DNA of 64,000 nucleotides from an uncultured bacterium (GTDB lineage Bacteria > Chloroflexota > Dormibacteria > Aeolococcales > Aeolococcaceae): positions 241,311-305,310 of the forward strand of contig CAVQTJ010000002.1 of assembly GCA_963716555.1 (NCBI GenBank). The letters run 5' to 3'. Position 1 is the stretch's first letter. The number at the start of each line of letters is the position of its first letter. Under the pieces are notes generated by a model. It was not told where the DNA came from. It worked only from the letters and a program-made list of their open reading frames with translations, and did not search any database. This document shows positions 1 through 47,159 of the stretch, one piece after another. Both the position numbers and the translations under genes were made by a program.

Positions 1-32
1 GGGGGCCGCCTGTCTGGCAGGATGAACCCACC

Positions 33-1119: not shown

Positions 1120-1311
1120 TCATACCCCGTCGGCCGTGCCCACCCTCCCGGTCCTGCCCCCCGCATACCCTCCACGTCAGCGCGGGCGAATACGCGAATA
1201 CAGCCGTCTCCACGAAGAGGGTCCAGCTCGGGACCGAGGATCACATTGGCAGTGCCCACGCCTGTACGATTCCGAGCCCGCCCCGGGCCGATCCCCCCTC
1301 CGCCCCGCGGC

Positions 1312-2424: not shown

Positions 2425-2472
2425 GGCCTTCTCCTTGGACATCCATGCTCGTGGCTTCGTCCTTGCCATCGA

Positions 2473-4045: not shown

Positions 4046-4133
4046 CTCCGCCGCCTCCTGTCTCTCCCCACTCCCCATCCGTCGCCGCCTAGCTTAGATG
4101 GCTAACTGTTAGATGTCAAACTCTTAGATATCG

Positions 4134-18083: not shown

Positions 18084-18105
18084 GGTGCCAGCATACTTGG
18101 AAGAT

Positions 18106-20873: not shown

Positions 20874-22085
20874 CTAGCCCTCCTGGACATCGCCGGTGGC
20901 GGCGCGCCGACGTCGGGCCTCCTCCTCACCCAGGGCGGTCCAGCGTCGCCGGATCTCCTCCTCAGCCAGATACACCACCGGGATCATCACCAGGATTGCG
21001 AAGGTGAGTGGTTGGTGCAGCGTTGAGAGCGCGTACGCGCCGAAGGGAATCCGCAGCTGGTAGATGCCGAGAACCTGAGTCGGAGCAACTCCGGCCAGGT
21101 CGGGAGCGTTGTTGGCATCCCCCTTGGTTCGGTAGAGAACCGGCGACCTGAGCGATCCGCGCAGGACTTCGACGATGCGGTGGGTGACGATGAGCGAGCT
21201 GGACGCCGATTCGCGAAAGGTGATGATCTGACCGACGTGGAGGCCGGCTGCCTGCGGTTCGGTGACCGGGTCGTCCACGATCAGGTCCCCGGTGTCGATT
21301 GCCGGGGTCATCGATCCGGAGGCGACGCTGAAGACGGGATGACCCATGATCGTGTCAACCCCATCAGCGCCGTGCCGCACCAGGAAGGCGAGCGCCACGG
21401 CCACCACAGCGAGGATCACGACGAGAATGACGAACAACCGCCCCACGGCTCGGAGAGCGGTTGTGCTCCAAGGCTCGCGACGCCGCTTGAGATGAGCCGG
21501 GGGAGTCATTCGCCTGAAGTCACCCTGGCCGGCGGACGGCGTGGGCGACGCGGTCGAAGTCGGCGTTGGGCTGGGTGTGGGTGTGGGTGCCGGTGTTGGT
21601 GTGGGCGCAGCTGTGGCTGCGGGCGTGGGCACCGGCGTTGAGGCGGGCGCGGGTGAAGGCGTTGGTGACGCTGTGGCAGGGTTCGTGGGCGTCGCAGCCG
21701 GCAGCGCGCTCGGCGAAGCCATGGGTGTTGGCGACGTGAGCGAGCTCAGTGCAGGCGGGACTGGCGGCGGTGTTGTGGTCGTGCCGGGCGCTGGCGTCTC
21801 GGGCGGATCAGCGGTCGATGTCTCACCGAAGGTGGCTGACGGCGCCGACGCCTGCGCACTGAAGATCGCCCAGGTCGATCCAATCAACGAGCCGCGCAGG
21901 GCGAACACGCCAACGCTGGCAGCCAGGATTGCGTACAAAACGGCCAGCGAGCGGCGGGCGTCCCAGCGGCGCCGAGCGTCCGAAAGCAGGCGCCTCCACC
22001 CCCGCGTGCGCCGGTGACGCCGGATAGCGCGGGCGGTGCGGGTGACGCGGGGAGCTTCGCTCGGTCCCCCTCTCTGAGGCGACAA
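20874..22085 (-). CDS. sipW: SipW-type signal peptidase I (S26B-like) with a 192-aa N-terminal extension
   Basis: The C-terminal 211 aa are the peptidase core (VASGSMTPAIDTGDLIV, VTHRIV, TKGDANNAPD). The N-terminal extension has its own TM, a WAIFSAQASAPSATFG motif and a Pro/Thr/Ala-rich linker. An internal ATG at 21509 would give a canonical-length enzyme. Confidence 0.75.
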   Translation of the reverse strand: MSPQRGGPSEAPRVTRTARAIRRHRRTRGWRRLLSDARRRWDARRSLAVLYAILAASVGVFALRGSLIGSTWAIFSAQASAPSATFGETSTADPPETPAPGTTTTPPPVPPALSSLTSPTPMASPSALPAATPTNPATASPTPSPAPASTPVPTPAATAAPTPTPAPTPTPSPTPTSTASPTPSAGQGDFRRMTPPAHLKRRREPWSTTALRAVGRLFVILVVILAVVAVALAFLVRHGADGVDTIMGHPVFSVASGSMTPAIDTGDLIVDDPVTEPQAAGLHVGQIITFRESASSSLIVTHRIVEVLRGSLRSPVLYRTKGDANNAPDLAGVAPTQVLGIYQLRIPFGAYALSTLHQPLTFAILVMIPVVYLAEEEIRRRWTALGEEEARRRRAATGDVQEG

Positions 22086-29122: not shown

Positions 29123-30125
29123 TCAGCCGATGAGCCCGGCCTGACAGATCGGGCAGCGCACCGCGCCCTCCTCCCTCGGAGCCCCGCAGGACGCGCACCG
29201 CAGCGGCGTCGCCGGCACCCGCTCGACGCCGGTCGAACCCGCCGCCGGGACCAGCGCCTCCCCGTCGGGAAGCAGCAGATGGAAGCTGCGGGCACGCATC
29301 GCCAGCGCGGTCCAGGGAAGCTCCGGGTAATCGGGATCGAGCGCCGCGAGTTCGATCGACGGTCGCGATCGCCTGATCACGCTCACCAAGCAGGTAGTCG
29401 ACAACCGCGGAGTAGTAGACGCACTGCCGCTGCGCCGGACTCAGCGCCTCACCGCTCGGAGGTGTCACCCTGCCCAGCACCGCCCGTGCCTCACGGAGAT
29501 CCTCGCTGCACATCAGCCCATAGGCGAGGTGAGCGGAGGCCGACGCGCGCGCCTCAGCGCTGAGCCCCGCGCCGGCAACCACCACCGTGAAGCTGGCGAT
29601 CGAGGCGTCGACCGCGCCGTGTCGCAGGCAGGCCGCCGCATACCAAGCGCGCATCCGCCAGTCGTCAGGGGCCTGCGCCAGGTACGCGCGATAGAAGCGG
29701 ATCGCCGCCGCCAGGTGCAGGTGGCGGTGGTGCCAGCGGGCCATCGCCGCCAGAACCAGCGGAGAATCCGGCGCCACGGCGTACGCCGACTCGAGCAGCG
29801 CCCGAGCGTCTGGCGGCTCCCTCTCGGCCTCGGCAACCAGGACGCGCACCCTCCACACCGGACGGCGCAGCTGAACCAGACCGATCACCAGCAGCGGAAG
29901 GCCGAGCGGAGCCGTGACCACCAGCAGGGTGAGCAACACGCCCCAGGCGATCTTCTGCGGCGGCAGCCACGTTCGCGGCGACCAAGCGGAGCGCTCCTGG
30001 ACCTCATCGCGTTCGAATCCCACTAGCTCCCGCGGCCCGAACCGCCGCGACACCGCGGATGGCGGATCGGCGAGCATGGCGGCGGGCTGGTCGGAGGCCA
30101 CAACCAACCTCACCATCACCGACAA
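29123..30125 (-). pseudogene. Membrane-anchored TPR-like protein with C-terminal zinc ribbon, frameshifted near 29350
   Basis: TM plus helical-repeat region in one frame. The C-terminus ...RCASCGAPREEGAVRCPICQAGLIG is in another frame. Confidence 0.45.
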
Positions 30126-30232
30126 TTCCGACTCTCGAGCATCCGGTTCTTCGCCCGAAAAGCTTAGGGGAACGAGACGAGCGGCATCGGCGTCACCGGC
30201 GGGAGCGCGCTCGCTCCAGGGAAGCCACCTCG

Positions 30233-31093
30233 ATGAGTGAGCGCACCGCCGCGGCGCCTCATGCGCACGGCATGCTCGCGACGGCTATCCGGGGGGCGCT
30301 GGTGCTCATCCTCTGCGCCCTGGCAGCGGTCACCCTGGGGTTCATCGCCCCGGTGGTCGTCCCGATCGGCGTCCTGCTCGTGCTCACCGTGCTTCTTGAC
30401 CCGGGCGGCCTGGGCACCAAGCTGCGCGCATCGCCGGGCTGGTGGGGGTTTCCCGGCCTGCGCTGGGGCTCACGCGGCGCGCTGCCCTTCGCGAGCCTGG
30501 TCGCCTGCTACACGGTGCTGCTCCCGGCGCTCGCCTTCGCCGGGCTGCGCCTGATCCCGACCGGGCCGGGACCGCTGGCCACCGTCCCCGGCCAGCAGGG
30601 GAGCTCGGCGACGGCGCAACCGGGATCGGCGGCGCCGTCCGGATCGGGAGCATCCGGCCCGGGCACGACGCACTCGGCGCAGCCGGGGACGCAATCGCCC
30701 TCAACACGCCATCGCCCCACGCCCGGAGGAACGTCCACCGCGGCGAGCAGCCCCACCGGGACGGCCACCCCGACCCCGGGCACGAGCCCATCCCCCACCA
30801 TCTCCCCTTCACCCACCTCCACACCGTCCCCAACCAACATCCCCACCCCGACCTCCACGCCGGAGATGGACCTCTGCGGGGCCCCGGCAAATCCCTGGGG
30901 CTACAACCTCTGCAGCGGCCCCGAGATCACCGCGGCGCCGGCCACCTTCTGCTCCTATTTCATGTGCGTGTCCCACTTCTCCACCGGGAGCGGTTACATC
31001 GTCGAGTGCTCCTCCGGCGACTACTCCTGGGACGTGATGACCGGCAACGTCCACCAGATGTGCGGCCAGATCCTCCAGCCCCTGTACGCCTGA
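30233..31093 (+). CDS. Membrane protein with a Pro/Thr/Ser-rich linker and a Cys-rich C-terminal domain
   Basis: Starts MSERTAAAP. 3-4 TMS, a PT-rich linker, and C-terminus DLCGAPANPWGYNLC...FCSYFMC...IVECSSGDYSWD. Confidence 0.5.
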   Translation: MSERTAAAPHAHGMLATAIRGALVLILCALAAVTLGFIAPVVVPIGVLLVLTVLLDPGGLGTKLRASPGWWGFPGLRWGSRGALPFASLVACYTVLLPALAFAGLRLIPTGPGPLATVPGQQGSSATAQPGSAAPSGSGASGPGTTHSAQPGTQSPSTRHRPTPGGTSTAASSPTGTATPTPGTSPSPTISPSPTSTPSPTNIPTPTSTPEMDLCGAPANPWGYNLCSGPEITAAPATFCSYFMCVSHFSTGSGYIVECSSGDYSWDVMTGNVHQMCGQILQPLYA

Positions 31094-32126: not shown

Positions 32127-32846
32127 ATGGCACGGACCGCAGAGGGGGAGGCGACGAGCGAGGACAGCCGCGGGGACGATCGGACAATCCGCGTCCTGGT
32201 GGTCGACGACCACCGCGCGGTGGCTGAATCCATCGCCATGGCCATCGACCTCCAGCCGGACCTCCGCTGCGTGGGCATCGCCGCCACCTCCGCAGAGGCC
32301 AGGGCGATGCTGCTGATCAAGAGCCCGGACGTGGTCCTCACCGACGTCCGCCTGCCCGACGGTGACGGGGTGGACGGGGCCCGCCGGCTGCTCGAGCTCC
32401 GCCCCGACCTGCGGGTGATCGTGCTCACCGCCCACACCGACCTCGACGTGATCGCCCGCGCCGCCTCCGCCGGGGTCTGCGGCTTCCTCCCCAAGGAGAG
32501 CGGCATCGGCATCGTGCTGGATGCGATCCGGCGCGCCGGCGAGGGCGCGATGGCGATCGACTCCGCCGTGCTCGGCGCGGTGCTGCACCGCGTCCAGAAC
32601 GAGCCACCGCAACCGGCCGAGACGCTGGGGGGCGATCTCACCGAGCGCGAGCGCGAGGTGCTCGGGCTGCTCGGCCAGGGGCTCGACCCCCAGGCGATCG
32701 CCCGCCAGCTGGGGATCAGCCTGCACACCTGTCGCGGCCACGTGAAGAGCATCCTCGCCAAGCTCGATGCCCACAGCCAGCTCCAGGCGGTGGTCAAGGC
32801 CAGCCGGCTCGGCCTGGCCCGGGGCTTCGCCGATGACCGAGGCTGA
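32127..32846 (+). CDS. NarL/LuxR-family response regulator
   Basis: REC (IRVLVVDDHRAV...VVLTDVRLPDGDG) plus LuxR HTH (LTEREREVLGLLGQGLDPQAIARQLGISLHTCRGHVKSILAKL). Confidence 0.85.
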   Translation: MARTAEGEATSEDSRGDDRTIRVLVVDDHRAVAESIAMAIDLQPDLRCVGIAATSAEARAMLLIKSPDVVLTDVRLPDGDGVDGARRLLELRPDLRVIVLTAHTDLDVIARAASAGVCGFLPKESGIGIVLDAIRRAGEGAMAIDSAVLGAVLHRVQNEPPQPAETLGGDLTEREREVLGLLGQGLDPQAIARQLGISLHTCRGHVKSILAKLDAHSQLQAVVKASRLGLARGFADDRG

Positions 32847-35800
32847 GACCGGCACCGACCTGGCGGCGCAAGCGGGAAGCCGATCCCTCCCCGCGCTGCT
32901 CCGAGGCGTGGCCGGGGGGAGCGATGAGCAGGTGCTCACCGGCGCCCTGCCCCTGCTCTGCGCCGCCCTGGGTTTCGAGGTGGGGCACGCCTACGCAGTT
33001 GAGGATCAATCCACGCGCTCAGTGTCCTGGCACCTGGCGGACGCCCGTTTCGAGCCGTTTCGCGCCGTCACCCCGCCGGGCAGCCCGGAGCCCGCGGGGG
33101 TGGTGGTGGCCGCGCTCACCAGCGGGGAGCCGGTGTGGCTGGAGGATATGCGCAGCAACCCCGTCTTCCTCCGCTCCCGGGCCGCCGAGGTGACCGGCCT
33201 GAACAGCGGAGCCTGCCTGCCCGTCCGCGCCGGAAGCGAGATCCTGGCGGTGCTGGAGCTGTTCAGCACCCAACCGCCCCCCATCCGCGCCGCCACCCGG
33301 GCCATGCTTCTCGACTCCACCGACGCCCTGGGGGAGGCGCTGACGGCCGCGCGCCGGCAGTCGAGCATGCGGTCCGCGGCCCGGCTGTGGCACGCCATCT
33401 TCGAGGGCCCCCAACCAGTGGCGGTGGTGGGGGTGGGACTGGAGGTGCTGGAGGCCAACCCCGCGCTCGGCGAGCTGCTCGGCACCGAGCCCTCGAGGAT
33501 GTCCGGCCTCAGCCTTGTCGATCTCGGCGCCACCGAGGATGACCGCGAGGTGATCGGGCTGCTGGCCGCCCGGCTCGATCGACCGCAACCGAATGGCGAG
33601 TCCGCCAGCCTGGCCTGCGTCCTGCACGACCGGCGAGAGCACGAGGTGGAGGTCGGGATCAGGGCATGGCCGGCTCCTGCGGAGGACGGCGAGGCACCCC
33701 GGCTCATCTGTCTCATCACCCCGGCGCGGCAGGCCGCCGTGACCGGCCGCGGTGGGCGCTTCGACGAGGCCCGAGCGGTGCTCAGCGAGCTGCCGCGCAT
33801 CCGCGACCTGGAGCGGCTGGTCCCGGTGGCCATCGCCTGCGCGGCGCGGCTCTCCGGCGACTACGCCGGCCTGGCCCTGCTCCAGCCCGAGGGCGGGGGC
33901 TACGCCAGCTACCACCACACCTCGCCCGACGGCTACGCGGTGGAGCTGCAGTCCGACCGGGTGGCCCGGATGCCGATCCTCGATGCGCTCCGCCAGGAGG
34001 ACCGGCCCATCCGGGTGGCCAAGGTCTCCGACCATCCCCTCTTCGTCGGCTTCCCCCCGGGCCAGCCCGCCCCCAACGCCTTTCTGGGCGTGTCGCTCCG
34101 GGCGGCGGGCCAGACCGTGGGTCACCTGCTCCTGGCCCGGCGGGAGCCCGAGCCCTTCTCCGACCAGGAGGAGGCGGTGGCCACCGAGATCGCCGCGGTG
34201 ATCGCCCAGGTGGTCCGCCTGGTGCGCGCCGAGGAGCGGATCCCGGTTCTGCGCACCCGGGCCCAGCGTCTGGTGCGCGCCAACCTGGCCCTGATGCGTC
34301 AGGTCCGCCCGGAGGGGGTCGCCCAGTGGTCGGTCAACGACCTCCGGACCACCGTCGACGCCGAGTATGCCGCCCTGCTCATGAACGGAGTGGAGGGCGA
34401 CGGAGCCGCCTCCTTTGTCCATTCCGGGCTGGCCAGAGGGCGGACGGCAGCGGTGGCCGCGTCTCGCCCCGAGGCCCGGGGCCTCCTCGGAGCCGCGATG
34501 CTGACCCGCCGGCCGATGCGCCTCGCCGACCTCCGCGACCATCCCACCCACTCCGCGCTCCCCGACGGCCACCCGGAGATGACCTCGTTCGTCTCCGCCC
34601 CGGTGATCCGCCAGGGCGAGGTGATCGGCCTGCTCTTCGCCACCAACAAGCGCGGCGCCGCCGAGTTCAGCCCCGACGACGAGGCATTCGTCGCCCAGAT
34701 GGCCACCGAGCTGGGCCGCTCCCGGCTGCTGGGGGCCGAGCCGGCGCCCGCGGACGTCATGGAGCGCCTGGTGGTGGCCTCGCGCGCGCTGCGCCACCAG
34801 ATGGACACGACCCGGTCGTTCCTGGGAAGCCTCTCCCACGAGCTCCGCGGCGCCATCAGCGGCATCCTGATCTCCGCGGAGCTGCTCACCGACCCCTCCC
34901 TGGGGACCCTCGGGGAGGAGCAGGTCCGCGTCCTCGCCATCCGGATCCACTCCGTGGCCGGCAACCTGCTCACCCTGGTGGACAACCTCCTCGACCTGGG
35001 ACAGCTCGAGGCGGGCCGGCTGGACATCCAGCTGCAGCCCGTGGACCTCCCCGCGGTGCTGCACGACGTCGAGGATGTGGTCAAGCCCCTGGCGGAGCGC
35101 GCCGGGGTGAGCCTCGAGTGGCCGCGGCTCGCCCGGGTCCCGAGGGTGGTCGCCGACCCGGTGCGGCTGCGCCAGGTGCTGGTCAACCTCATGACCAACG
35201 CGGTCAAGTTCACCCCGGCCGGAGGACGAGCCTGGTTGGAGATCACCCCCGATACCGAGACCGTGAGCCTGGCGGTGTGTGATACCGGCCGGGGTGTCCT
35301 GGAAGAGGAGCGGGAGCGGATCTTCGAGCCCTTTGCCCGGTCGGCGCAGGCGGGCATCGACCACGTCCCCGGAGTGGGGCTCGGGCTGGCCATCTGCCGG
35401 CGCATCACCGAGCTGCACGGCAGCCGGCTGGAGCTGGTCAGCGAGCCGGGCTTGGGCAGCCGCTTCTCCTTCAGCCTGCGGCGCTCCCGGGAACCGCTGC
35501 CTCCACGGCTGCTGCGCCCGCCGGGAGGCGCGATCGGGGTCGCCGGCCGGGACGGCGCGCCACTCTCCGTGCTCCTGGTCGAGGACGACCCGGTCAACCG
35601 CCAGTCGATGAGCGACGTGCTGACCGCCGCGGGCTATCAGGTGCGGGCGGTGGCGACGCGGTCGGCGGCGCTGGAGTCGGCCGGCAAGCACGCTCCGGAC
35701 CTGGTCATCCTCGATGTCCAGCTGCCCGACGGTGACGGCCTGGAGATCGTGGACACCCTCCGCTCCACCGCGGCCCGGTCGCTGGCGGTGGTGGCGGTCT

Positions 35801-35937
35801 CCGCCGACCGGGTGGGCGACGTGGTCGACCGCGCCGCCCGGGCCGGGTGCGACCGCTTTGTCCTCAAGCCGGTGCCGGCCCGCGAGCTCCTGGCGGTGGT
35901 GGGCTCGGCGCTGGTGGACGTGAGAGCGGGTATCTGA
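32833..35937 (+). CDS. Cytoplasmic hybrid sensor histidine kinase (GAF/PAS-like repeats, HisKA, HATPase, REC)
   Basis: ATG overlaps the regulator stop (ATGA). H-box LGSLSHELRGAISGI. N/G boxes NLMTNAVKFTP, DTGRGV, GVGLGLAICRRI. C-terminal REC LLVEDDPVNR...ILDVQLPDGDG...KP. Confidence 0.85.
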   Translation: MTEAETGTDLAAQAGSRSLPALLRGVAGGSDEQVLTGALPLLCAALGFEVGHAYAVEDQSTRSVSWHLADARFEPFRAVTPPGSPEPAGVVVAALTSGEPVWLEDMRSNPVFLRSRAAEVTGLNSGACLPVRAGSEILAVLELFSTQPPPIRAATRAMLLDSTDALGEALTAARRQSSMRSAARLWHAIFEGPQPVAVVGVGLEVLEANPALGELLGTEPSRMSGLSLVDLGATEDDREVIGLLAARLDRPQPNGESASLACVLHDRREHEVEVGIRAWPAPAEDGEAPRLICLITPARQAAVTGRGGRFDEARAVLSELPRIRDLERLVPVAIACAARLSGDYAGLALLQPEGGGYASYHHTSPDGYAVELQSDRVARMPILDALRQEDRPIRVAKVSDHPLFVGFPPGQPAPNAFLGVSLRAAGQTVGHLLLARREPEPFSDQEEAVATEIAAVIAQVVRLVRAEERIPVLRTRAQRLVRANLALMRQVRPEGVAQWSVNDLRTTVDAEYAALLMNGVEGDGAASFVHSGLARGRTAAVAASRPEARGLLGAAMLTRRPMRLADLRDHPTHSALPDGHPEMTSFVSAPVIRQGEVIGLLFATNKRGAAEFSPDDEAFVAQMATELGRSRLLGAEPAPADVMERLVVASRALRHQMDTTRSFLGSLSHELRGAISGILISAELLTDPSLGTLGEEQVRVLAIRIHSVAGNLLTLVDNLLDLGQLEAGRLDIQLQPVDLPAVLHDVEDVVKPLAERAGVSLEWPRLARVPRVVADPVRLRQVLVNLMTNAVKFTPAGGRAWLEITPDTETVSLAVCDTGRGVLEEERERIFEPFARSAQAGIDHVPGVGLGLAICRRITELHGSRLELVSEPGLGSRFSFSLRRSREPLPPRLLRPPGGAIGVAGRDGAPLSVLLVEDDPVNRQSMSDVLTAAGYQVRAVATRSAALESAGKHAPDLVILDVQLPDGDGLEIVDTLRSTAARSLAVVAVSADRVGDVVDRAARAGCDRFVLKPVPARELLAVVGSALVDVRAGI

Positions 35938-36181
35938 CCCAGGGATAGTCAATCGCAGGGTTACGACCCGATTTGGGGGTGGCTCGTGACCCAGGGTGGG
36001 CTGGTGACCGATTCGGGGTACCCGTAGGCTGACCACGCAGCATCCAGGATGCTGTCCGCCTCGGTGAGGGGGGCGAACGAGAGGATACGGGGGGCCGGGC
36101 TCGCCGATGACGGCACTCGACGCACTGTCTTCCCATCCCGTTGCGCCCCGCAGCTCCGCCCCCCCTCCCTGGCGGTAGGCG
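35938..36181 (+). promoter_or_regulatory. Candidate control region of the TasA-like operon
   Basis: Direct repeats GACCCAGGG...GACCCGATTTGGGG and GACCCAGGG...GACCGATTCGGGG, plus a perfect palindrome CAGCATCC-A-GGATGCTG at 36038-36054. No promoter boxes assigned. Confidence 0.3.
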
Positions 36182-37858
36182 ATGGCACCGCGCGCCGGCC
36201 CACGATTCCATCCGCTGCGGACCATCATCAGCGTCTTCCTGGTGGTGGCCGCCATCGCCGTGGTCCTGGTGGTGGTACCCGCGGCGCAGTCGCTGGTGCT
36301 CGGAAGCAAGCTGACGTCCGTCACCGATTTCGGTATCTCGGGCAGCGTGACCAACCTGGCGCCCGGCCTGGGCTCACCGCTCGACCTCACCGTGAGCAAC
36401 CCGTACACCAACGCCGAGGACGCGATCACCCTCCTCACGGTCACGGTCCAGGTGTCACCGACCTCAACCATCACCTCGGTTCCCGCCAACTGCCCTGGGA
36501 CCGACCTGTCGCTCCAGTACAACGATGTGACGACCCCGCTCACCGGCAGTCCGGCTCAGGCGACCGTCACGCTGTCGTCTCCCCAGCCCATGATCCCGGC
36601 GAGCAGCTCGGCGTCATTCACTGATATTTCAGTCCTGCTGGCCACCGGCGCCAGCAACACCGGCTGCCAGAACGTCACCTTCCCGTTCAACTACTCGGCC
36701 ACCGGCAGCTACAAGGACGCGACGACCACCACGGTCGCATCCTCCTCGCCGGGCAACACCGCCGATGTCAGCCAGCCGGTGACCTACACGGCCACGGTGA
36801 CCCCGTCAATGTCGGGTCAGTCGTCGAATCCGACCGGCACGGTCATTTTCTATGACGCGTCGACCCCGATCGGCTGTTCCTCTTCGACCCCATTCAACTT
36901 CAACGGCGGCAGCAACACAGGCACAGCGACGTGCACGACCAGCTATGGTTCCACTGGCGCGCACTCCATCAGCGCGATGTATTCGGGCGACAGTGACTTC
37001 GCGGCCAGCACGTCGGCCACCATCACAGAGGTGGTCGTGGAGAGCGCCTGTGTGAGCATCTCCACCGGCGGGTCCAACACGACCACGATCACCGGCACGT
37101 ACGGCGGCAACTTCGAGGTCACGGCCGGCAAGGTCCTGTACATCAAGGGCGGGACCATCACCGGCAACGTCAAGGTCGACGCGGCGGGAGCGCTGCTGGC
37201 CTCGGCCGGAACGATCAACGGCAACCTCCAGTCCTCCGGAGGCCCGGTGGCCGTCCAGGGGACCACCGTGGATGGGAACCTGCAGGCGACCGACGCCCAG
37301 GCCTCCGTCGGTGCCGGCACCACCGTCGACGGGAACCTCCAGGTGAGTGGCACCTCGGTCTTCTGCAGCCTCGGATCCACGACCCAACCGGTCACCGTCA
37401 AGGGCAACCTCCAGGTCCAGTCGCTGCTCAGCAGCTCCACCAATGAGCTGATCTGCGGCACTGCCGTCAGCGGCAACATCCTCTATCAGAGCAATGCCTC
37501 TCCCGCCACCGTGGGCGGTGGGACCTCGAACTGCCCAGGGAACACCACCAATGGCAACTTCCAGGTTCAGAGCAACACCGCCGCGCTGGTCATCGACGGC
37601 AACAAGGCCGCCGGCAACTTCCTGGTGCAGAGCAACACAGCGCTGCTGAGCATCACGGGCAACACCACCGGGGGCAACTTCCAGGTCAGCGGCAACACCC
37701 TGCCTGCGCACACCTACCCGCCATACAGCACCCTCACCAACAACACGACTGATCCGAGCGGTGGCAACTGTCAGCTCAGCGGCAACTCCCCCGGTATCAC
37801 CGGCAGCGGCAACACCGTCCCGCCGGGCCGGGCCAACACATGCAACGGGAGCGCGTGA
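36182..37858 (+). CDS. Membrane-anchored surface protein: Ig-like domain plus beta-helix-like GN(L/F)Q repeats
   Basis: N-terminal TM; Ig-like segment (VTYTATVTP...GTVIFYDASTPIGC...ISAMYSGDSDFAAS); about 12 repeats of ...G(T)xxGN(L/F)Q(V/A/S).... Confidence 0.6.
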   Translation: MAPRAGPRFHPLRTIISVFLVVAAIAVVLVVVPAAQSLVLGSKLTSVTDFGISGSVTNLAPGLGSPLDLTVSNPYTNAEDAITLLTVTVQVSPTSTITSVPANCPGTDLSLQYNDVTTPLTGSPAQATVTLSSPQPMIPASSSASFTDISVLLATGASNTGCQNVTFPFNYSATGSYKDATTTTVASSSPGNTADVSQPVTYTATVTPSMSGQSSNPTGTVIFYDASTPIGCSSSTPFNFNGGSNTGTATCTTSYGSTGAHSISAMYSGDSDFAASTSATITEVVVESACVSISTGGSNTTTITGTYGGNFEVTAGKVLYIKGGTITGNVKVDAAGALLASAGTINGNLQSSGGPVAVQGTTVDGNLQATDAQASVGAGTTVDGNLQVSGTSVFCSLGSTTQPVTVKGNLQVQSLLSSSTNELICGTAVSGNILYQSNASPATVGGGTSNCPGNTTNGNFQVQSNTAALVIDGNKAAGNFLVQSNTALLSITGNTTGGNFQVSGNTLPAHTYPPYSTLTNNTTDPSGGNCQLSGNSPGITGSGNTVPPGRANTCNGSA

Positions 37859-37862
37859 CCAC

Positions 37863-38597
37863 ATGAGCGCCGCTTTCACTCCCGACGAGCCGACGAGCCC
37901 GCGGCGCCTCGGCCACCGCTGGCGGCTTCTGGGCATCCTCGCGCTCGTGGCAGCAGCCGCCGCCCTGGTGGCGAGCATTGCGCTGGGCGCGCTGAGCACC
38001 AATGGAGCGGGCACCGGCTCGGCATCGACCGGCTCCGTTGCCCTGACCACCAACGGGTCCGCAACCATGAGCTGCACGGTTGGCCCCATGGCTCCAGGAG
38101 ACTCGTCGACGGGCTGGAGCGGCAACCCCATCACCGGACAGACCGACACGAAGTCGGCACCCTGCACCCTCTCGGTAACGTACGCCGGCTCGCTCTCCGC
38201 ATTCATCGGCCTCGGCGTCAGCGGGGAAAACGGCCTGTACGACGGTACGCCGAACGGACTGCAGCTCCAGATCAGCGATGGCGTCAACTCGTACTCGACG
38301 AGCGGAGCGGTCAATCCCAACACAGCGTCGGATCCGCTGTACGTCGCGACGGACCCCGGCACCGCCAGCGGCGGCGGCCACACCTACGACTTCACGGTGA
38401 ACTACGCACTCCCGCGGACCTACAGCAGCTCCCCGGATACGCAGGACAACACCTATCAAGGCCGCTCCACGACGCTCGTGTTCACCGTCTATGCCGTCCA
38501 GACCGTCGGCGACGGCTATGCGACGACCAACGGAATGTCGGGCGGCCCTGCCTGCACTCCCGGCCAGCAGTGTTCGGGCATCACCGCCTGGAGTTGA
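37863..38597 (+). CDS. TasA/camelysin-like exported protein, paralog 1
   Basis: TM plus ALSTNGAGTGSASTGSVALT. CTLSVTYAGSLSAFIG, NTYQGRSTTLVFTVYAVQ. C-terminus CTPGQQCSGITAWS. Confidence 0.7.
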   Translation: MSAAFTPDEPTSPRRLGHRWRLLGILALVAAAAALVASIALGALSTNGAGTGSASTGSVALTTNGSATMSCTVGPMAPGDSSTGWSGNPITGQTDTKSAPCTLSVTYAGSLSAFIGLGVSGENGLYDGTPNGLQLQISDGVNSYSTSGAVNPNTASDPLYVATDPGTASGGGHTYDFTVNYALPRTYSSSPDTQDNTYQGRSTTLVFTVYAVQTVGDGYATTNGMSGGPACTPGQQCSGITAWS

Positions 38598-38601
38598 TGA
38601 G

Positions 38602-39267
38602 ATGTCGGTCACCACGATGCGGACCGCGCGGCTCGACGGGGCTCCCAACGCCCCGGGGCGGCTTCGCCGAGCGTCGAGAGCGGTGACCCGTATGGTCAGC
38701 ACGACCCTCACCGTGCTCATCAGCATGGTCGCGGCGGTGACGGTCGTGATCGCGGTGGCCGCCCACCTCTCGCCCCAGGGGCAATACGTGGTCTTTGGCC
38801 ATCCGGTCATGACCGTCCTCTCCGGGTCGATGGCTCCGACCATCAGCACGGGTGACCTCATCGTTGACGACACGGTGACCACATCCCAGGCGGAGCACCT
38901 CCGGGCCGGCGAGGTCATCAGCTTCCGTGCGGCGCCGGGGAGCGAGACGGTCATCACCCACCGCATCGTCGGTGTGACCACCATGGATGGGGCGGTGAGC
39001 TACCTCACCAAGGGGGACCGAAACAACGCAGCGGACACCGTCCCGCGGCCCGCATCCGACGTCCTCGGGGTGTTCCAGTTCGCCATCCCCCGCGGTGGCT
39101 ACATTCTCAGTGCCCTGCAACGGCCGCTGGTGCTTGTCCTGCTGCTCGCCTCCCCCATCCTCTGGCTCGTGGCCGGGCTCTTCTACGCCCGCGCTCGCGA
39201 GCTCGAGGAGCTGGAACGGCGGGAGCAGGCGTCAACCACCGCAATCACCGGGGGGCCTCAGCGATGA
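38602..39267 (+). CDS. sipW: SipW-type signal peptidase I (S26B-like)
   Basis: TM, LSGSMAPTISTGDLIV (catalytic Ser), ITHRIV (His), TKGDRNNAAD, and a C-terminal TM. Confidence 0.85.
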   Translation: MSVTTMRTARLDGAPNAPGRLRRASRAVTRMVSTTLTVLISMVAAVTVVIAVAAHLSPQGQYVVFGHPVMTVLSGSMAPTISTGDLIVDDTVTTSQAEHLRAGEVISFRAAPGSETVITHRIVGVTTMDGAVSYLTKGDRNNAADTVPRPASDVLGVFQFAIPRGGYILSALQRPLVLVLLLASPILWLVAGLFYARARELEELERREQASTTAITGGPQR

Positions 39268-39426
39268 GCGCCGCCGCTCTCCTGAACAGCGATGGGCGCA
39301 GCCCTCCCATCCCCACGACGGTCAACGGGAGGTCGCCGTGAATGACCTTTCGTGAGCCCGATCCGAGCGGCGATCCCGCTCACATTCCCGATAGCCACAA
39401 ACAGAGAGAGAGGAGACAAAGCCATC

Positions 39427-40123
39427 ATGAGAATAGGCAAGAGAAGGCTGGCGCTCGGAGCCGCCGGCATCGCGACCGTGGGGGCGGCGGCGACAATGCT
39501 CGCCGGAGTGACCTTCGGTCTGTTCAGCGCCACCACCCCGACGCAGTCCAACACCTTCACTGCGGGAACGGTGTCGCTCAGCCAGTCTGCCGTGACAAGC
39601 TGCACGATATCGAACATCCAGCCCGGCGACTCTGGATCGTGCCACTTCACGGTGACCTACACGGGGTCAGCCAGCTCGGGAGCGTGGCTCGGTGTGGATC
39701 TTGCGGTCACCTCCCCCGTGGCGGGCTCGCCGGTGCAGGCGTATGCCCCGGGCAACACGGGGACGACCCCAACCGCGGCCGCAGGAACTCTACGACTCCA
39801 CGGCCAATGGGCTGCAGGTGACGATCGCCGACAACCAGGCAATATCGGTGACCTACATGAGCGGCACCTCGTGGAACGGCTCGTCCACGTCCGGTACCAC
39901 TCCCTCCGTCAATGACTTGCTGGTCAACAAGGCGGCATTCACGGGTTCCACTGCGGTGCAGTTCACCATCTCGTGGTCCCTGCCGACCACGGCCAGCAAC
40001 GCCTACGACGGCGCCGCATCGACCCTCACGATGCTCGTTCACGCAGTCCAGGCGGGCAACAACGGCTCGACCGCCAGCTGCACTGCCGGGGACACCTGCT
40101 CCGGCATCACTGCGTGGAGTTGA
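39427..40123 (+). pseudogene. TasA/camelysin-like exported protein, paralog 2, frameshifted near 39780
   Basis: MRIGKRRLALGAAGIATVGAAATMLAGVTFGLFSATTPTQSNTFTAGTVSL, PGDSGSCHFTVTYTGS. The C-terminal half (NAYDGAASTLTMLVHAVQ...CTAGDTCSGITAWS) is in another frame. Confidence 0.7.
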
Positions 40124-40134
40124 TCTAGGCAGCC

Positions 40135-41088
40135 ATGGCCCGCACGGAACTCCGTCAGGAGAACCTATGGGGTAGGGAGACGGGGCATCGCCCCGTTTCC
40201 CGCCCCGCGGGTCCTGGCACGCCCTGGAAGGTCAGCGACGGTCCGACCCCATGGGAGCAGGTCGGCTGTGCCACCTGGGCGGAATTCAGCACACATCGGC
40301 TGACGCCTGTTGCCGAGCCGACCCCCGATTCGGGCCAGGTGACGAGCGTAACCCGAGGGCGCGTGATCGCCGCGGTTCCCCCGCAGACCAATCGGCTCCC
40401 CTCACCTCATAGGCGGAGGCCGACGGTTCGGCGGTTGGTGGCTGCAGGAGGACTGCTGGCCTGCCTCGTCGCCTCGTCCATGATCGGCCTCGGGGTGAGC
40501 CTCGCTCGGCTGAGCACCGCCACCCCCACCCAGTCCGGAAGCGTCAGGGACGGAACCGTCACGCTGGGCAGCACCGCCATAGCGAACTGTCCAGTGGCCG
40601 GTCTGCTGCCCAACGGCACCAGCCCCACTCCCTGCACCTTCACGGCGACGTACTCGGGCTCCGTTCCCGCCTACGTCGCCGTGGACGTGATCATCGAGGC
40701 CCAGGCCGGGGCGGGTGGGACCAAGCTGTACAACCCAACCGACTCGAGCAACGACCTGCAGGTCTCGATCGGCTCCACGACCCCATCCGTCACCTACACG
40801 GTGCCCACCTCTGCCACGACGTGTCCCACCGGTGCGCCGGCGGGCTCGAGCTGCTACGAACTGGATAACGAGCTGGTCAGCACCGCCACCTTCAGTGCCA
40901 GCGGCTCCATCGGTTTCAGCGTGAGCGTGAAGCTACCCACGACCTCGCCGACGGGGTATGAGGGCGGAACGGCCCAGATCAGCCTCATCACCCACGCCGT
41001 CCAGGCTGCCCACAACACTTTGTCGTGCACCTCCACCCCCACTGCAGGGCAGGCGTGTACGCCGAGCGGTTCGTTCAGGTGGAGCTGA
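40135..41088 (+). CDS. TasA/camelysin-like exported protein, paralog 3 (start uncertain)
   Basis: TM plus LARLSTATPTQSGSVRDGTVTL, CTFTATYSGSVPAYVA, GYEGGTAQISLITHAVQ, C-terminus CTPSGSFRWS. Alternative GTG start at 40339. Confidence 0.65.
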   Translation: MARTELRQENLWGRETGHRPVSRPAGPGTPWKVSDGPTPWEQVGCATWAEFSTHRLTPVAEPTPDSGQVTSVTRGRVIAAVPPQTNRLPSPHRRRPTVRRLVAAGGLLACLVASSMIGLGVSLARLSTATPTQSGSVRDGTVTLGSTAIANCPVAGLLPNGTSPTPCTFTATYSGSVPAYVAVDVIIEAQAGAGGTKLYNPTDSSNDLQVSIGSTTPSVTYTVPTSATTCPTGAPAGSSCYELDNELVSTATFSASGSIGFSVSVKLPTTSPTGYEGGTAQISLITHAVQAAHNTLSCTSTPTAGQACTPSGSFRWS

Positions 41089-41089
41089 G

Positions 41090-43789
41090 ATGAGAGCGCC
41101 CGGCTGCCGCCTCTCGGCACGTTGCATCCCAGGCCGCTACAAGGCCGCCGCGCTGCTCGCCTGCGCGGCCATCGGCGGCTCGCTGCCCCTGGTGGCACTT
41201 GCTTTCTTCTCGAACGCGCCGGCCACCCAGGCTGCGGATGTGACAACCGCCACCATCGCCGCGCCGACCAACTTCACCGCCACAACGGTCTCGACCACGT
41301 CGGCGAATCTGAGCTGGACGGCGCCGGCGACCCTCACCGGGTACACGCTCACCCAGTCAACGGGCAGCCTCGCCGGCTGCTCGGCAACCCCAACCTCAGG
41401 AACGATGTCGTGCACCGCCACGGGTCTCACTGAGGGAACAAATTATACGTGGACTCTGACGGCCGTCTACAACCACTGGTTGAGCGCCTCCGTCAACGCG
41501 AGCACGACGACGCTAGCGTCGGTGACGTTCACTACCGCCGGCAGCCACTCCTTGGACGTCCCGGCAGGCACGACCTCCGTGCAGTACAACCTGGTCGGAG
41601 CAGGCGGCGGCGGCGGCAACACGGCTGGCGGTAGCGGCGGAGATGGGGCGCTGCAGTCCGGAACCATCTCGATTTCGAGCAACCCAAGCGGCATAACCTT
41701 GACAGTGTGGGTTGGTGCCGGTGGGAGCAGCAGCAGCAGCGGCACCGGTGGGGAGGGATGCGCTACTAGTGGTTACGGCCAGGGCGGTGCGGGCGGCGAT
41801 ACCGGCGGCCGGGGCGGCGGCGGGGGTGGAGCAAGCTGCATCTACGTTGCGAGTACTCCTGCCTCTCCGATAGTCATTGCAGGCGGTGGCGGGGGCGGCG
41901 GCTCAAACGGCGGAGGTTCGAGTGCTGGTTCTGGAGGCGCTGGCAACGGCGGCTGCGGCGATTCCGGCTCCTGCGCATCAAACCCTGGCACGGATACCGG
42001 AAGCAACGGCACCAACGGTCAGGATGGGACAGCCGGCGATGGCGGCTCGACCCAGACGACCGGTGTCTTCCCATACGGAGTTACCAACACCGGCGGCACC
42101 GGAGGCACTCACACTGACGGGGCTGCCAACGGTGCTAACGGTGGAACTGGCTCGGGCTCCAGCAACGGGGGCGGCGCGGGAGGAACTGGCGGCGGGAGCG
42201 CCGGCGGTGGTGGCGGTGGCGGTGGCGGTGGCTACGCGTCCGGTGGTGGCGGCGGGGGTGCGAAGCAGAACGATAGTGCAAGCGGTGGTGGTGGCGGGTC
42301 TGGCTACAGCGGTGGCGCGCAGGTCAGCTCGGTCAACTACACGGTCAGCGTCAGCTCCATAACCCAGACGGGCGACCCCGGAGTCTCCGCCGGCGTCGGT
42401 GGAGCGTCCGACACGAGCGGTGAGGCCGGCTATGCCACCTTCATTGGTGCGGGGATCATGGACCCCGTGTTGGCGATCACCTCTGATCCGGTCAGCGGAG
42501 CGGTGTCGTCGACACCCGACCTCGGGCCGATCACGGTCCAGCTGGAGGACGGCACAGGAGCCCCGCTCGACGCCCCGCCCGGTGGGGTCACCGTCTCGCT
42601 CAGTACAACGTCACCAGACGGGTCCTTCAGCACAACACCGTCCAGTCCCAGTGTGACGAGCATCGAAATCGCTGAGGGCTCCAGCAGCGCCAGCTTCTAC
42701 TACGGTGACACCGAGGCCGGGACTCCAACCATCACCCTTGCTTCCGGCGACTACTCGAGCGCGACGCAAACCGAAGCCATCACCGACCCAACGTTGGTGA
42801 TCACCTCGAGTCCGGTCAGCGGCGCAAGCTCCTCAACCCCGGATCTCGGGCCGATAACGGTTCAGCTGCAGGACGGCCTCGACGATCCGATTGATGCACC
42901 GGCCGGTGGGGTCACGGTAACGCTGAGCTCCACCTCTTCGGGTGGATCCTTCAGCACCACACCCTCCGGCTCGGCCAGCACCAGCGTGGTCATCCCGGAG
43001 GGGTCCAGCAGCGCCAGCTTCTACTACGGTGACACCAACGCCGGAACGCCCACCATCAGCGTCACCGCCGGCAGCTTCACCACCGCCACTCAGACGGAGA
43101 CGATCACCGATCCAGCTTTGGCGATGACCTCGAGCCCGGTCAGCGGCGCAAGCTCCTCAACTCGCGGACCTCGGCCCGCTAACGGTCCAATTGCAGGACG
43201 GACTGGGCGATCCCATCGACGCGCCGGCCGGCGGGGTCACGGTCACACTCAGCTCCACGTCGTCTGGTGGATCCTTCAGCGATACGCCGTCCGGTGCCAG
43301 TGTCACCAGCGTCGTGATCCCTGAGGGTGCCAGCAGCGTGACCTTCTACTATGGCGACACCAACAGTGGCACGCCGACGATCACGCTGACGGCTCAGGGA
43401 TACGCGGGTGCTTCGCAGGTGGAGAGCTTCACGTGACCCTGCACTACGGCTCCTGTAGGACTGAGCCTTGCCGACGTTAGCGGCGGCTCGCTGACCTGCT
43501 CCGACCCGAGTGGCGGTACCACCAAGCCAACGGGAAGTGGCGCGAAGAGTGGGTCACTCACAGCCGAGATTGACTTTGTCAACAGCAGTGGCGGCCCGGT
43601 TGTCTCCAACACGACGCACGGTTCGACGATCTTCGTGGACGTCGCCCACGGCATGCCAACAGCCGAAACGGTGACGGTAGCAGCGGAAGCGACCACCTCG
43701 TCGACGTCCTTCACGGAGCCCGCTCTGGAGCGAGCTGGACCACCACAACCGTGACCTTTGGTCCATACACCATCAACATCTCAGCCTGA
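41090..43789 (+). pseudogene. Large surface protein: FN3 domain, glycine-rich domain, 3 tandem Ig-like repeats and a terminal domain; interrupted
   Basis: N-terminus TM plus FFSNAPATQA. FN3-like (PTNFTATTVSTTSANLSWTAP...GTNYTWTLTAVY). Gly-rich core. There is a 1-nt insertion near 43163, an in-frame TGA at 43434-43436 and a frame change near 43710 before the final TGA at 43787-43789. Confidence 0.6.
42461..43433 (+). repeat. Three tandem 324-nt (108-aa) coding repeats
   Basis: Units start at 42461, 42785 and 43109 (DP.L.ITS.PVSGA.SSTPDLGPITVQL.DG...GGVTV.LS.TS..GSFS.TPS....S..I.EG.SS..FYYGDT..GTPTI). Confidence 0.85.
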
Positions 43790-44198: not shown

Positions 44199-45935
44199 AT
44201 GGCGCTGATCACGCGACGACGCGAAACGCCGGAGGAGCCCGCCGAACGGTGGGCCTCCTCCGGCGGCCAGCCGCTGGGCGAGCTGCTCGTGGGCCGCGGC
44301 ACCACCGACGCCAAGACGGTCCAAAAGGCGCTCCACCGCCAGCGTCGCGAGAAGCGCCCGATCGGGGAGCTGCTCGTCGACGGAGGGCTCAAGGAGTACG
44401 ACATCGTCTCCGCCCTCGCGGACCAGTTCGGCTTCAACCCCATCGACCTCGACAGCATCACCCCCGAGGAGGAGGCGCTCCTGCGGCTCGACGCCACCCA
44501 GGCGCGCCGCCTCGCCACCCTCCCGTTCCTCATCGACGAGGTGGGCCGGGTCCACTGCGCGGTCACCAACCCCGGCGACCAGCAGAAGGAGGAGGCGATC
44601 CGGGACACCATCGGCCAACCGGTGGTCCTGAGGCTCGCCGGACGCCGGGCCCTGGAGCGAGCGCTCGACCGCAACTACCAGCTCTTCCACCGGGTCGAGA
44701 ACGCGGTCTCGCAGGCGGCCGGCGAGCGGGCCGAGGTCGCCCAGCGTCAGCCGGCCACCATCGAGGTCGATGCCCCGGTGGTGCAGATCGTCGACCTGCT
44801 GCTCACCCAGGGGCTCCGCGACCGGGCTTCGGACATCCACCTCGAGCCCCAGGCCGACCGGCTGCGGGTCCGCTACCGGGTCGACGGCGCCCTCCACGAC
44901 GTCCAGTCCCTGCCCATGAACCTGGCGCCGTCGCATCTCCTCACGGCTCAAGATCATGGCCGGCATGGACATCGTCGACCGCCACCGCGCCCAGGACGGC
45001 CAGATCGCGATGCAGCTCGACGGCCGGCCCATCGACATCCGGGTGGCGACCATGGAGACCACCTGGGGCGAGAAGGTGGTGCTCCGGCTGCTCGACCCGG
45101 AGCGCGTCCTGGTGTCGATGAAGTCACTGGGGCTGGAGCCCGAGGTCGAGACCACCCTGCGCAGCATGATCGAGGCGCCCTACGGGCTGATCGTGGTCAC
45201 CGGCCCCACCGGGTCGGGCAAGACCACCACCCTCTACTCCATCCTCAACGAGCTGGACTCCAAGCGGCTCAACATCACCACCATCGAGGATCCCGTCGAG
45301 TACCAGTTCGCGGACATCAGCCAGGTGAGGATCAATAAGCTCGCCGACATGACCTTCGCCAACGGCCTCCGGGCCATCCTGCGTCAGGACCCCGATGTGA
45401 TCCTGGTCGGGGAGGTGCGGGACGCGGAGACGGCGAGCATCGCCATCCAGGCGGCGCTCACCGGGCACCTCGTGCTCTGCTCCCTGCACGCCTCCGACAC
45501 CGCGGGGGCCGTGCACCGCTTCCTGGACATGGGCATCGAGGCCTTCCTGGTCGCCTCGGCGCTGGCCGGGGTCCTGGCCCAGCGCCTGATCCGGACAAAC
45601 TGCGAGCGCTGTGCCGCGCCATACCAACCGCGAGCCGACGAGGTCGAGTTCTACCGGGAGACCCGGGAGAGGGATCCCGACTTCCTCACCCGGCTCAGGC
45701 CGGGGTTGCGCGCGCTGCGCCCACACCGGCTTCTACGGCCGCACCGGCGTCTTTGAGCTGCTCCGGGTCGACGACGACTTCCGCCAGCTGATCGTCGATC
45801 GCGGCGACCAGCGTCGCCCTGCGCACCGCCGCCGCCTCCAGGGGCACGGAGAGCCTGCAGGAGGCAGCCTGCAAGCTCGTCGAGCGAGGCAGCACCTCCC
45901 TCTCCGAGGCGATGCGCGCCGTCTACGTGATCTAG
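44199..45935 (+). pseudogene. pilB: Type IV pilus assembly ATPase PilB (GspE family), at least 3 frameshifts
   Basis: N-terminal GSPII_E-like region, Walker A VVTGPTGSGKTTTLYS, Asp box IEDPVEY, Walker B/His box ILVGEVRD...GHLVLCSLH, tetracysteine CERC...CARC. Frame changes near 44927, 45685 and 45810. Confidence 0.85.
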
Positions 45936-45946
45936 GGGGAGGGCAG

Positions 45947-47159
45947 GTGCAGGTCTTCCGGTACACCGCGGTCGCCGTCGATGGCACGACGGTCGAGGGC
46001 GTCATGCAAGCGGCCCACACGGACGACGTCCGCGCCGCTCTCCGCGCCCGGGACCTCCGGGTATCGGGCATCGAGAAGTCGGGGACAAGTGGTACTCCAA
46101 GCTGCTTCCGGAGCGGAAGGTCAAGTCCCAGGAGGTGGTGATGTACTGCCGCCAGCTGGCCACCTTTGTCCAGGTGGGGATCCCCATCACCGACGCCTTC
46201 CAGACCCTGGCCGATCAGACCAGCAACAAGCAGATCCGTGAAGCCAACCTGGCCATGCTGACCGACATCCAGATGGGGGTGCCGCTCAGCGACACGATCC
46301 GCTCCCACCCCCTGGTCTTCCCTCGGGTGGTTGCGGACATGATGCAGGCCGCCGAGGCCTCGGGCAACCTCGAGGTGGTCCTCCGCCAGGCGGCCAAGAC
46401 CATCGAGCGGGAAGCGCAGTTCCGCCAGAAGGTTAGGGGCGCGATGATCTACCCGTCGATCGTCTCCGTGCTGGCCCTCGTCATTGCCATCGGCCTGCTC
46501 GTCTTCGTCTTGCCATTGTTCCGCAACCTTTACGGACGAGCTCGACGTTAAGATGCCCGGTCTGATGGTAGCTCTGCTCGGCCTCTCCGACGTTCCTACG
46601 CAGCAACGCCATCATCCTGCTCCTCATCCTCCTAGTCGGATTCATCGCGGCGGCGTACTGGCTACGGACCCTGTCCGGCAAGTACTTCCTCCATCGCCTC
46701 TTTCTGAGGCTCCCGGTATCCGCCCCGATGATCCGAGCCGCTGTGTCCGAACGGTTCTGCCGGACCCTGGGGGATCTCCTCAACGCCGGGGTACCCATGG
46801 GTCAGACCTTCGCCGTCGTGGTCGAGACCACTTCCAATCTGGTCTTCCGCCGTGCCCTGGAGAGGGTACTCACCCTGATGGGGACGGGCAACGGCCTCGC
46901 CGGTCCGCTCCGCGACACGGGTCTCTTCCCTCCCATGGTGGTGATGATGGTCCGCGTCGGCGAGGAGACGGGTCGCCTCGACGTCAACCTCCGCGAGATG
47001 TCGGAGATGGCGGGTGACGAGCTCGACTACCGCATCAAGAAGATGACCGCGGTCATCGAGCCGGCGCTGATCGTGGGTGTTGGAATGATCGTGGGCTTCA
47101 TCGCCATCACCCTCTTCCTCTCCATCTACTCACTGGCTGGGAACTTCTCGGGGGGATGA
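45947..47159 (+). pseudogene. pilC: Type IV pilus platform protein PilC (GspF family), at least 3 frameshifts
   Basis: GTG preceded by GGGGGAGGG. VQVFRYTAVAVDGTTVEG..., two GspF repeats (YCRQLATFVQVGIPI.. and FCRTLGDLLNAGVPM..). Frame changes near 46075, 46525 and 46590. Confidence 0.85.

Follow-up and report, generated by a model that had tools for sequence, protein, structure and literature searches.

The closest described relative of the locus reported here is the sipW-bsaABCRSD operon of Clostridium perfringens, which encodes BsaA matrix fibres (PMC7395162, PMC11580942); next come tapA-sipW-tasA of Bacillus subtilis and the archaeal AbpA/AbpB pair. In C. perfringens the sipW promoter yields a bicistronic sipW-bsaA mRNA and a read-through mRNA of the remaining genes, and BsaR/BsaS are essential for sipW-bsaA expression (PMC7395162). 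Multi-paralog TasA/BsaA operons that include FN3 proteins and signal peptidases are reported to be widespread (PMC11580942), and TasA homologs have already been listed for Chloroflexota and Actinobacteriota (PMC9245690). We describe module B, a gene cluster in a 64,000-nucleotide (nt) stretch of contig CAVQTJ010000002.1 (GenBank assembly GCA_963716555.1). That whole stretch is called the window, and coordinates given without a locus handle refer to it. Module B is probably a SipW-dependent extracellular fibre operon of the TasA/BsaA type, matrix or pilus-like, in a Candidatus Dormiibacterota bacterium.

The original prediction, made from the letters of the DNA, placed eight co-oriented genes here: a LuxR-type regulator, a hybrid kinase, an anchored beta-helix protein, three TasA-like paralogs, a SipW-type peptidase and a repeat protein. 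Open reading frame (ORF) listing with Pfam and NCBIfam profile searches finds eight genes of these types, all on the + strand. The features, with the evidence for each, are as follows.

32127-32846, + strand: B1, NarL/LuxR-type response regulator, REC and GerE helix-turn-helix domains (Pfam Response_reg 6.5e-21, GerE 4.7e-14)
32833-35937, + strand: B2, soluble hybrid histidine kinase of 1034 amino acids (aa) with three GAF domains, PAS_4, HisKA, HATPase_c and a C-terminal REC (Pfam)
36182-37858, + strand: B3, N-terminal transmembrane/signal segment, beta-sandwich D1, Big_3_5 immunoglobulin (Ig) domain, beta-helix (Pfam, AlphaFold2)
37863-38597, + strand: Tas1, TasA-like paralog 1, 244 aa (BLASTP to Tas2, AlphaFold2/Foldseek)
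38602-39267, + strand: SipW, signal peptidase I of endoplasmic reticulum (ER)/archaeal type by alignment, two transmembrane segments (TIGR02228, SEC11A/C alignment)
39427-40123, + strand: Tas2, TasA-like paralog 2, 231 aa once frame-corrected (PF12389, orthologs, third-codon-position G+C content (GC3))
40170-40206, + strand: GC-rich stem-loop with 17-nt arms and a 3-nt loop, candidate attenuator or mRNA stabiliser (fold statistics)
40426-41088, + strand: Tas3, TasA-like paralog 3, 220 aa, GTG start with an alternative ATG at 40480 (BLASTP to Tas2, orthologs)
41090-43436, + strand: B8, SipW-type signal, FN3, Gly-rich region of ~330 aa, three 108-aa Ig-like tandem repeats, ending at TGA 43434-43436 (fn3, repeat finding)
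43437-43754, + strand: open frame after the B8 TGA, 105 codons in the same frame as B8 (GC3 0.68-0.73)

Junctions were said to be tight or overlapping throughout; four are (B1 and B2 overlap by 14 nt), but three are gaps, of 245 nt (B2-B3), 159 nt (SipW-Tas2) and ~300 nt (Tas2-Tas3). An Rfam search of the window gave zero matches. A 99%-identical B3 occurs in a metagenome-assembled genome (MAG) at NCBI labelled Candidatus Dormiibacterota, an uncultivated soil phylum of Bacillati; the source is thus no actinobacterium, although its base composition could point that way.

Module B and the C. perfringens bsa operon both have a SipW gene of their own directly ahead of the major TasA-like gene (in module B the presumed one), behind which lies a terminator-like element. 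Each also encodes another TasA-like paralog and a large accessory protein that is secreted, and each has a two-component system alongside. Type IV pili are linked to both, to module B by adjacency only. It differs in gene order, with the two-component system first and B3 and Tas1 as additional genes before sipW, and in content, with three paralogs rather than two and an FN3/Gly-rich/Ig-repeat accessory protein in place of one with vWA. Its kinase is a soluble GAF/PAS hybrid and its phylum is Dormiibacterota. Its N-terminal strand contains no Lys, and by sequence the N-E-K isopeptide lock of bsa is absent; four conserved Cys are found instead. The suggestion that module B is a novel system is not supported, since its architecture is already that of sipW-bsaABCRSD (PMC7395162) and multi-paralog operons are reported to be widespread (PMC11580942; PMC9245690). 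What is new is a six-gene cassette with a beta-helix/Ig protein, three distinct paralogs and an FN3-start protein, its occurrence in Dormiibacterota, and a conserved hairpin after Tas2.

The peptidase scores 98.2 bits against TIGR02228, above the curated cut-off of 51.85, and 106.3 bits (1.4e-30) against NF046067, the Bacillus SipW equivalog, below the 190-bit equivalog cut-off. We take it from these scores to be an enzyme of the same type as Bacillus SipW, but not its ortholog. Aligned to human SEC11A/C it keeps the motifs SGSM (Ser76), HR (His120) and GD (Asp139), in the contexts SGS76M, TH120R and KGD139, with Asp145 as an alternative Asp. The alignment thereby identifies an ER/archaeal-type signal peptidase with its Ser-His-Asp set intact, not a Ser-Lys dyad; the predicted Ser/His dyad is present, plus the Asp. 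A Kyte-Doolittle scan gives SipW one N-terminal and one C-terminal membrane segment.

In a second cluster of the window, module A, SipW and a TasA-like gene likewise occur together with a NarL-type two-component system. Its paralogy to module B, as first proposed, is real but distant (SipW 47%, TasA-like protein 31%, response regulator 31%; the kinases are alike in the catalytic core only). On the - strand of module A, at 20874-22085, a 403-aa ORF runs in frame from a SipW-type signal (...GSTWAIFSAQASAPSATF) through ~110 aa of Pro/Thr-rich linker into a complete SipW peptidase domain. It has no internal stop and a Met before the transmembrane segment of the peptidase, and is either a fusion or two genes.

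Tas1, Tas2 and Tas3 are probably TasA-family beta-sandwich proteins, in keeping with their prediction as TasA/camelysin relatives. Together with the module A TasA-like protein they align over their whole length, and the common features are a signal made of a hydrophobic segment and GLFSAT, then the strand TFTAGTVxL, four Cys, the motif HAVQxxNN and, towards the C-terminus, C..G..C....WS. In Tas1 the signal is a variant (...LGALSTNGAGTGSASTGSVAL / GAGTGSASTGSVAL), and the four conserved Cys are present. Judged by their sequences, Tas1-3 and B8 begin with the special type of signal (hydrophobic segment plus an F-S/A-F-F-S motif) that such peptidases cut. Frame-corrected Tas2 matches PF12389 with 37 bits (cut-off 22.5; E 4e-9) over its N-terminal 70 residues only, and the same domain is present in most Tas2 orthologs, which are intact, reach 80% identity and span both halves of the split gene. 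Relatives of Tas2 bear the source names TasA family, camelysin and SipW-like signal peptide proteins. BLASTP connects Tas1 (1.4e-17) and Tas3 (7.9e-25) to Tas2. When a joint family profile of 86 members is run against the whole PDB sequence set, TasA is the sole match (E 0.0065), with the N-terminal TFxxGTxxL strand and the NxYQG...AxQ motif collinear. For the AlphaFold2 model of Tas1 (pLDDT 84), the Foldseek ranks 1, 2 and 4 are TasA (8aur/5of1/5of2), followed by the donor-strand pilins FimG, CupB6 and PapA, with an archaeal bundling pilin at rank 12.

The family is not rare: at E<=1e-3 it counts 1126 cluster representatives. Pattern scans built on the broad alignments A1 and A5 failed, the sequences being too divergent, and a genome scan with alignment A2 gave 2 loci only. 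The JGI name for these proteins, 'ribosomally synthesized peptide with SipW-like signal peptide', was rejected as a function, the proteins being predicted to be folded beta-sandwiches of 230 aa. By sequence inspection the mature N-terminal regions, where the N-E-K isopeptide lock would require it, hold no Lys, the first Lys being residue 97 in Tas1, 168 in Tas2 and 100 in Tas3.

The tapA-sipW-tasA operon of B. subtilis (PDB 8AUR, 5OF1; PMC9674648, PMC10151520) likewise unites an accessory gene, sipW and TasA-family subunits, and its TasA, the best structural match, shares the SipW-type signal, the TFxxGTxxL strand and the NxYQG...AxQ motif. Sequence identity is only 12-15%. Unlike that operon, module B has several subunit paralogs, its B3 is no TapA homolog, and regulation would be by the adjacent two-component system rather than SinR/SlrR. 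Pyrobaculum AbpA/AbpB (PDB 7UEG; PMC9245690) joins a TasA-like jelly-roll donor-strand pilin to a larger beta-sandwich protein put forward as its initiator or adhesin, a combination also predicted for module B; the archaeal pair lacks a dedicated signal peptidase and is the weaker structural match (Foldseek rank 12). The Fim/Pap chaperone-usher pili, whose FimG and PapA, with CupB6, are among the Foldseek matches, are comparable by analogy only: they are heteropolymers of paralogous Ig-like subunits with a tip adhesin and a stem-loop after the major-subunit gene, whereas module B is without chaperone, usher or outer membrane.

The 17-bp stem-loop at 40170-40206 lies directly 3' of the Tas2 stop and is far more stable than expected by chance (z = -4.5; 0 of 200 shuffles as good). 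A hairpin of differing sequence occurs at the same place in all five related loci, making six loci with the window; ranked by strength against the other 60-nt folds in 15-20 kb of its locus, each of these hairpins comes first or within the top 1-5. The best ribosome-binding site, too, belongs to Tas2, a purine-rich GAGAGGAGA upstream. Tas2 is the probable major subunit, because it has the closest orthologs, a strong ribosome-binding site and this conserved strong hairpin after the gene. The gene order follows the bsa-type pattern, in which sipW and the major subunit are followed by a terminator-like hairpin and then by paralog and accessory genes, and read-through is predicted. A scan for sigma-70 and terminator consensus sequences stayed at background level. 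Between 30 and 46 kb a single other fold is as strong as the post-Tas2 hairpin. This second very strong hairpin (CCGGAGGAGCCCGCC...GGUGGGCCUCCUCCGG, 44227-44262) sits inside the longest ORF of the neighbouring PilB gene, 30 nt past its ATG; it may end module B, with PilB then starting further downstream.

B3 was predicted as a membrane-anchored Ig plus beta-helix protein, and this description stands. It has one N-terminal hydrophobic segment, a Big_3_5 domain (2.6e-14) and a weak bactofilin match in Pfam, and its AlphaFold2 model (pLDDT 82.5) shows two beta-sandwiches and then a long beta-helix of ~250 aa, with C-terminal Cys pairs. D1 of B3 is homologous to small secreted proteins with a SipW-type signal (hhalign probability 96%), whose N-termini match the Tas profile (probability 95%); the direct match of D1 to that profile is weak (34 columns, probability 81%). 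The N-terminus of B8, once likened to a SipW-type cleavage region on the strength of FFSNAPATQA, does carry a signal of the same kind as the Tas proteins (...LAFFSNAPATQA). B8 further has an fn3 domain (Pfam, 1.4e-9), FN3 matches in the PDB and a tandem repeat of 324 nt x 2.8. We infer that B3 is a candidate anchor or nucleator, and B8 a candidate adhesin or matrix partner.

A small secreted D1 protein, a B3-like transmembrane-Ig-beta-helix protein and a giant FN3-start protein recur as a triad elsewhere (L004 6097-13088; L005 10001-13955 with L006 413-2914; L010 540-8499; L013 9106-14699). Its small and giant proteins have an ...AFAYF(T/R/V)S.G.G signal like that of CalY/TasA substrates, and no SipW or TasA gene lies in the DNA stretches examined at these loci. 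The triad may be a simpler relative of the cassette.

The conserved unit is the six genes B3-Tas1-SipW-Tas2-Tas3-B8. Two unrelated metagenome contigs have the full order: L007 (JGI 3300064471) encodes a B3-like protein, Tas1, SipW, Tas2, Tas3 and an FN3 protein exactly as in the window, and L009 (JGI 3300050132) has the same six positions. Three loci have part of it, namely L008 (SipW-Tas2-Tas3-B8-like), L001 (SipW-Tas-Tas, then a 1649-aa repeat protein with the same signal type) and L002, from an Actinomycetota MAG (B3-like-Tas-SipW-Tas, with a kinase and a NarL-type regulator upstream). Tas3 orthologs at the same position are 58% identical in L007 and 48% in L001, and B8 shares 53% identity over its N-terminal 150 aa with the product of the gene that closes the L007 cassette. 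Of the eight genes expected to be conserved together, six thus recur in the same order, but the two-component system is not co-conserved.

Two side observations concern these loci. In L007 the position just ahead of the cassette, which in the window belongs to the two-component system, is taken by a STAND NTPase-pentapeptide-WD40 protein of more than 1480 aa (3-4445). L001 (CAWIIC010000004.1) is labelled 'uncultured proteobacterium' despite its SipW-Tas-Tas cluster. To our knowledge, published surveys find TasA homologs nearly absent from Proteobacteria, so the label may be wrong.

B1 and B2 have the NarL/LuxR two-component pattern, REC with GerE in the regulator and HisKA with HATPase_c in the kinase. 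The LuxR-type regulator was correctly foreseen, as was the cytoplasmic 1034-aa hybrid kinase with several GAF/PAS modules (three GAF and a PAS_4): a Kyte-Doolittle scan of B2 finds no hydrophobic segment, so the kinase is taken to be cytoplasmic. NarL/MadR-like NCBIfam matches of B1 all fall under their equivalog cut-offs. A two-component system adjoins the cassette here, in module A and in L002. By their adjacency, B1 and B2 would probably act on the 245 nt ahead of B3 to turn the operon on. Such control is plausible because the same kind of pairing is seen independently in module A and because Clostridium cannot do without BsaRS. Upstream of B3, a direct repeat of 10 nt (TGACCCAGGG x2) was considered as a regulator site and rejected, with 9 copies of the motif found in the window against 9.2 expected.

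In the mechanism we propose, cleavage by SipW would free an N-terminal strand (TFTAGTVSL in Tas2), which would complete the sandwich of the next subunit by donor-strand exchange, by analogy with TasA (PMC9674648), giving a chaperone-free fibre. Tas2 would form the shaft, and Tas1 and Tas3 would be minor subunits. By analogy with sipW-bsaA, the hairpin would yield a SipW-Tas2 transcript plus read-through, making Tas2 abundant. B8, with its FN3, Gly-rich and Ig-repeat parts, would be a fibre-associated adhesin or matrix partner, and B3 would anchor or nucleate the fibre by way of its TasA-related D1. Two conserved Cys pairs per subunit may stabilise the structure, replacing the BsaA-type isopeptide lock, and B2 with B1 would turn on expression from upstream of B3.

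Several observations weigh against reading module B as a fibre operon. Tas1 and Tas3 have no match of their own in a Pfam search, and the Foldseek likeness of Tas1 to TasA is weak (E 0.01-0.03, TM 0.32-0.41). B3 was tried as a TapA homolog and rejected, since its family profile matches no TapA chain in the PDB and Foldseek returns only generic tandem Ig sandwiches. Proteins of the B3 family are also found without Tas or SipW genes nearby; the 8 B3-like loci that the B3 alignment picked out of the metagenomes all lack Tas and SipW genes, and B3 is therefore not a cassette-specific marker. B2 has a REC but no detected HPt domain that could pass phosphate on to B1. The two-component system is not beside the cassette in L007 and L009, so that its proposed place as a dedicated part of the conserved unit is not supported. 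Finally, the 7.5 kb from B1 to SipW are free of frame defects, in contrast to at least six between 39.7 and 47 kb. If the indels were real, Tas2 (the presumed major subunit) and B8 would be pseudogenes in this genome.

These defects raise the leading alternative, in which the genome is shedding its surface appendages and the cluster is a degenerating copy without function, the lesions in Tas2, B8, PilB and PilC all being genuine. The second TasA-like paralog is TasA-like as predicted but not one intact ORF: one extra base at ~39787 (GGA-A-CTC) splits its coding over two frames, as judged by a GC3 phase switch there and by tblastn with intact orthologs, which align on both sides. Nor is B8 the single ORF of ~900 aa first described. 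It has a +1 frameshift at ~43166, within the third 324-nt repeat, and an in-frame TGA at 43434-43436, beyond which the same frame stays open to 43754, not 43789. The stretch 43437-43754 is either a C-terminal domain severed by a nonsense or base error, or else non-coding; its product has no Pfam or NCBIfam match and no counterpart in the related loci. At 44199-47159 PilB lies in three frames (T2SSE model positions 5-57, 67-288 and 299-342, the central piece matching at 3.7e-90) and PilC in two. The concentration of the lesions downstream of SipW favours decay, and so does the protein collection, which holds no near-identical intact Tas2, the top match being only 80% identical.

We nevertheless consider decay unlikely. 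Every defect is a single indel flanked by well-conserved coding sequence, and additional stops or deletions are absent; each half of Tas2, for instance, matches orthologs at 75-80% identity. An unrelated hydrolase-like gene at 18085-19286 is likewise frame-split. Because PilB, PilC and that hydrolase are also broken between conserved flanks, the frameshifts are most likely uncorrected long-read assembly indels rather than gene decay; the 315-kb contig itself suggests a long-read assembly, where such indels are typical. In a sister MAG (GCA_049582245.1) contig L003 carries B3-Tas1-SipW (window 36170-39331) at 98% identity and without indels. Tas1 differs there by 2 synonymous and 0 non-synonymous changes, and B3 too differs mostly at synonymous sites. 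Tas2 and B8 of this MAG were sought and not found, the contig stopping just short of Tas2. Programmed frameshifting was rejected, the indel contexts being different and unrelated genes being hit too.

The sister contig is a mosaic, ~99.5% identical over B3 and Tas1 and only ~93% over SipW, which holds 46 of the 61 mismatches and 22 amino-acid changes. Behind such a pattern may lie recombination, gene conversion among paralogs of SipW, or chimerism in a short-read assembly.

The type IV pilus locus reported next to module B is there, with PilB, PilC and pilins from 44199. A second alternative makes the two one functional unit, the cassette needing the adjacent pilus machinery for export through the wall, in the manner of BsaC and BsaA in C. 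perfringens. The co-oriented PilB/PilC/pilin genes begin 445 nt past the B8 tail, and in C. perfringens secretion of BsaC needs PilA3 while PilA2 modulates sipW expression (PMC11580942, PMC7395162). Yet a strong hairpin separates the clusters, and none of the related loci has a PilB or PilC homolog less than 10 kb from its cassette, so the pilus neighbourhood drops out as a conserved part and we regard such a unit as quite improbable. On the other side, just upstream of module B, 30059-31093 encodes a membrane protein whose long linker is rich in Pro, Thr and Ser and whose C-terminal domain, of ~60 aa, is Cys-rich. Least probable of all is that the TasA-like proteins are monomeric secreted or surface proteins (camelysin-type, spore or cell-coat) that simply leave the cell by way of a signal peptidase of their own. 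In its favour are the first description of PF12389 as a family of metalloproteases, a spore coat-associated annotation of TasA and the weak fold likeness to the TasA fibre. Against it, the CalY protease assignment is regarded as a probable misidentification (PMC11580942), all members studied by experiment (TasA, BsaA, AbpA) polymerise (PMC9674648, PMC7395162, PMC9245690), and three paralogs with a hairpin-marked major gene make a pilus/fibre operon pattern.

A bolder form of the fibre reading, which we offer only tentatively and would not expect to hold in full, is that the six-gene cassette builds a heteropolymeric pilus whose subunits are put together in order and without a chaperone. At the membrane, B3 would start assembly by means of its TasA-related domain, Tas2 would make the shaft, Tas1 and Tas3 would serve as adaptors or terminators, and the FN3 protein would be joined by the same SipW-released donor strand. 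The idea of ordered heteropolymers in TasA-family fibres has been raised, and not tested, in PMC11580942.

Module B opens no new category of system. With three paralogs, a beta-helix protein, an FN3 protein and one type of signal, its cassette is a compact candidate for ordered heteropolymeric TasA-family fibres. We know of no cultured, characterised representative of Candidatus Dormiibacterota, and of nothing reported on the cell-surface structures of this phylum. For it, the locus predicts a TasA-type fibre through a defined, conserved six-gene cassette. If the ordered pilus were true, it would be a monoderm counterpart of the chaperone-usher pili, found in Dormiibacterota and neighbouring uncultivated lineages and related to the SipW-less triad.

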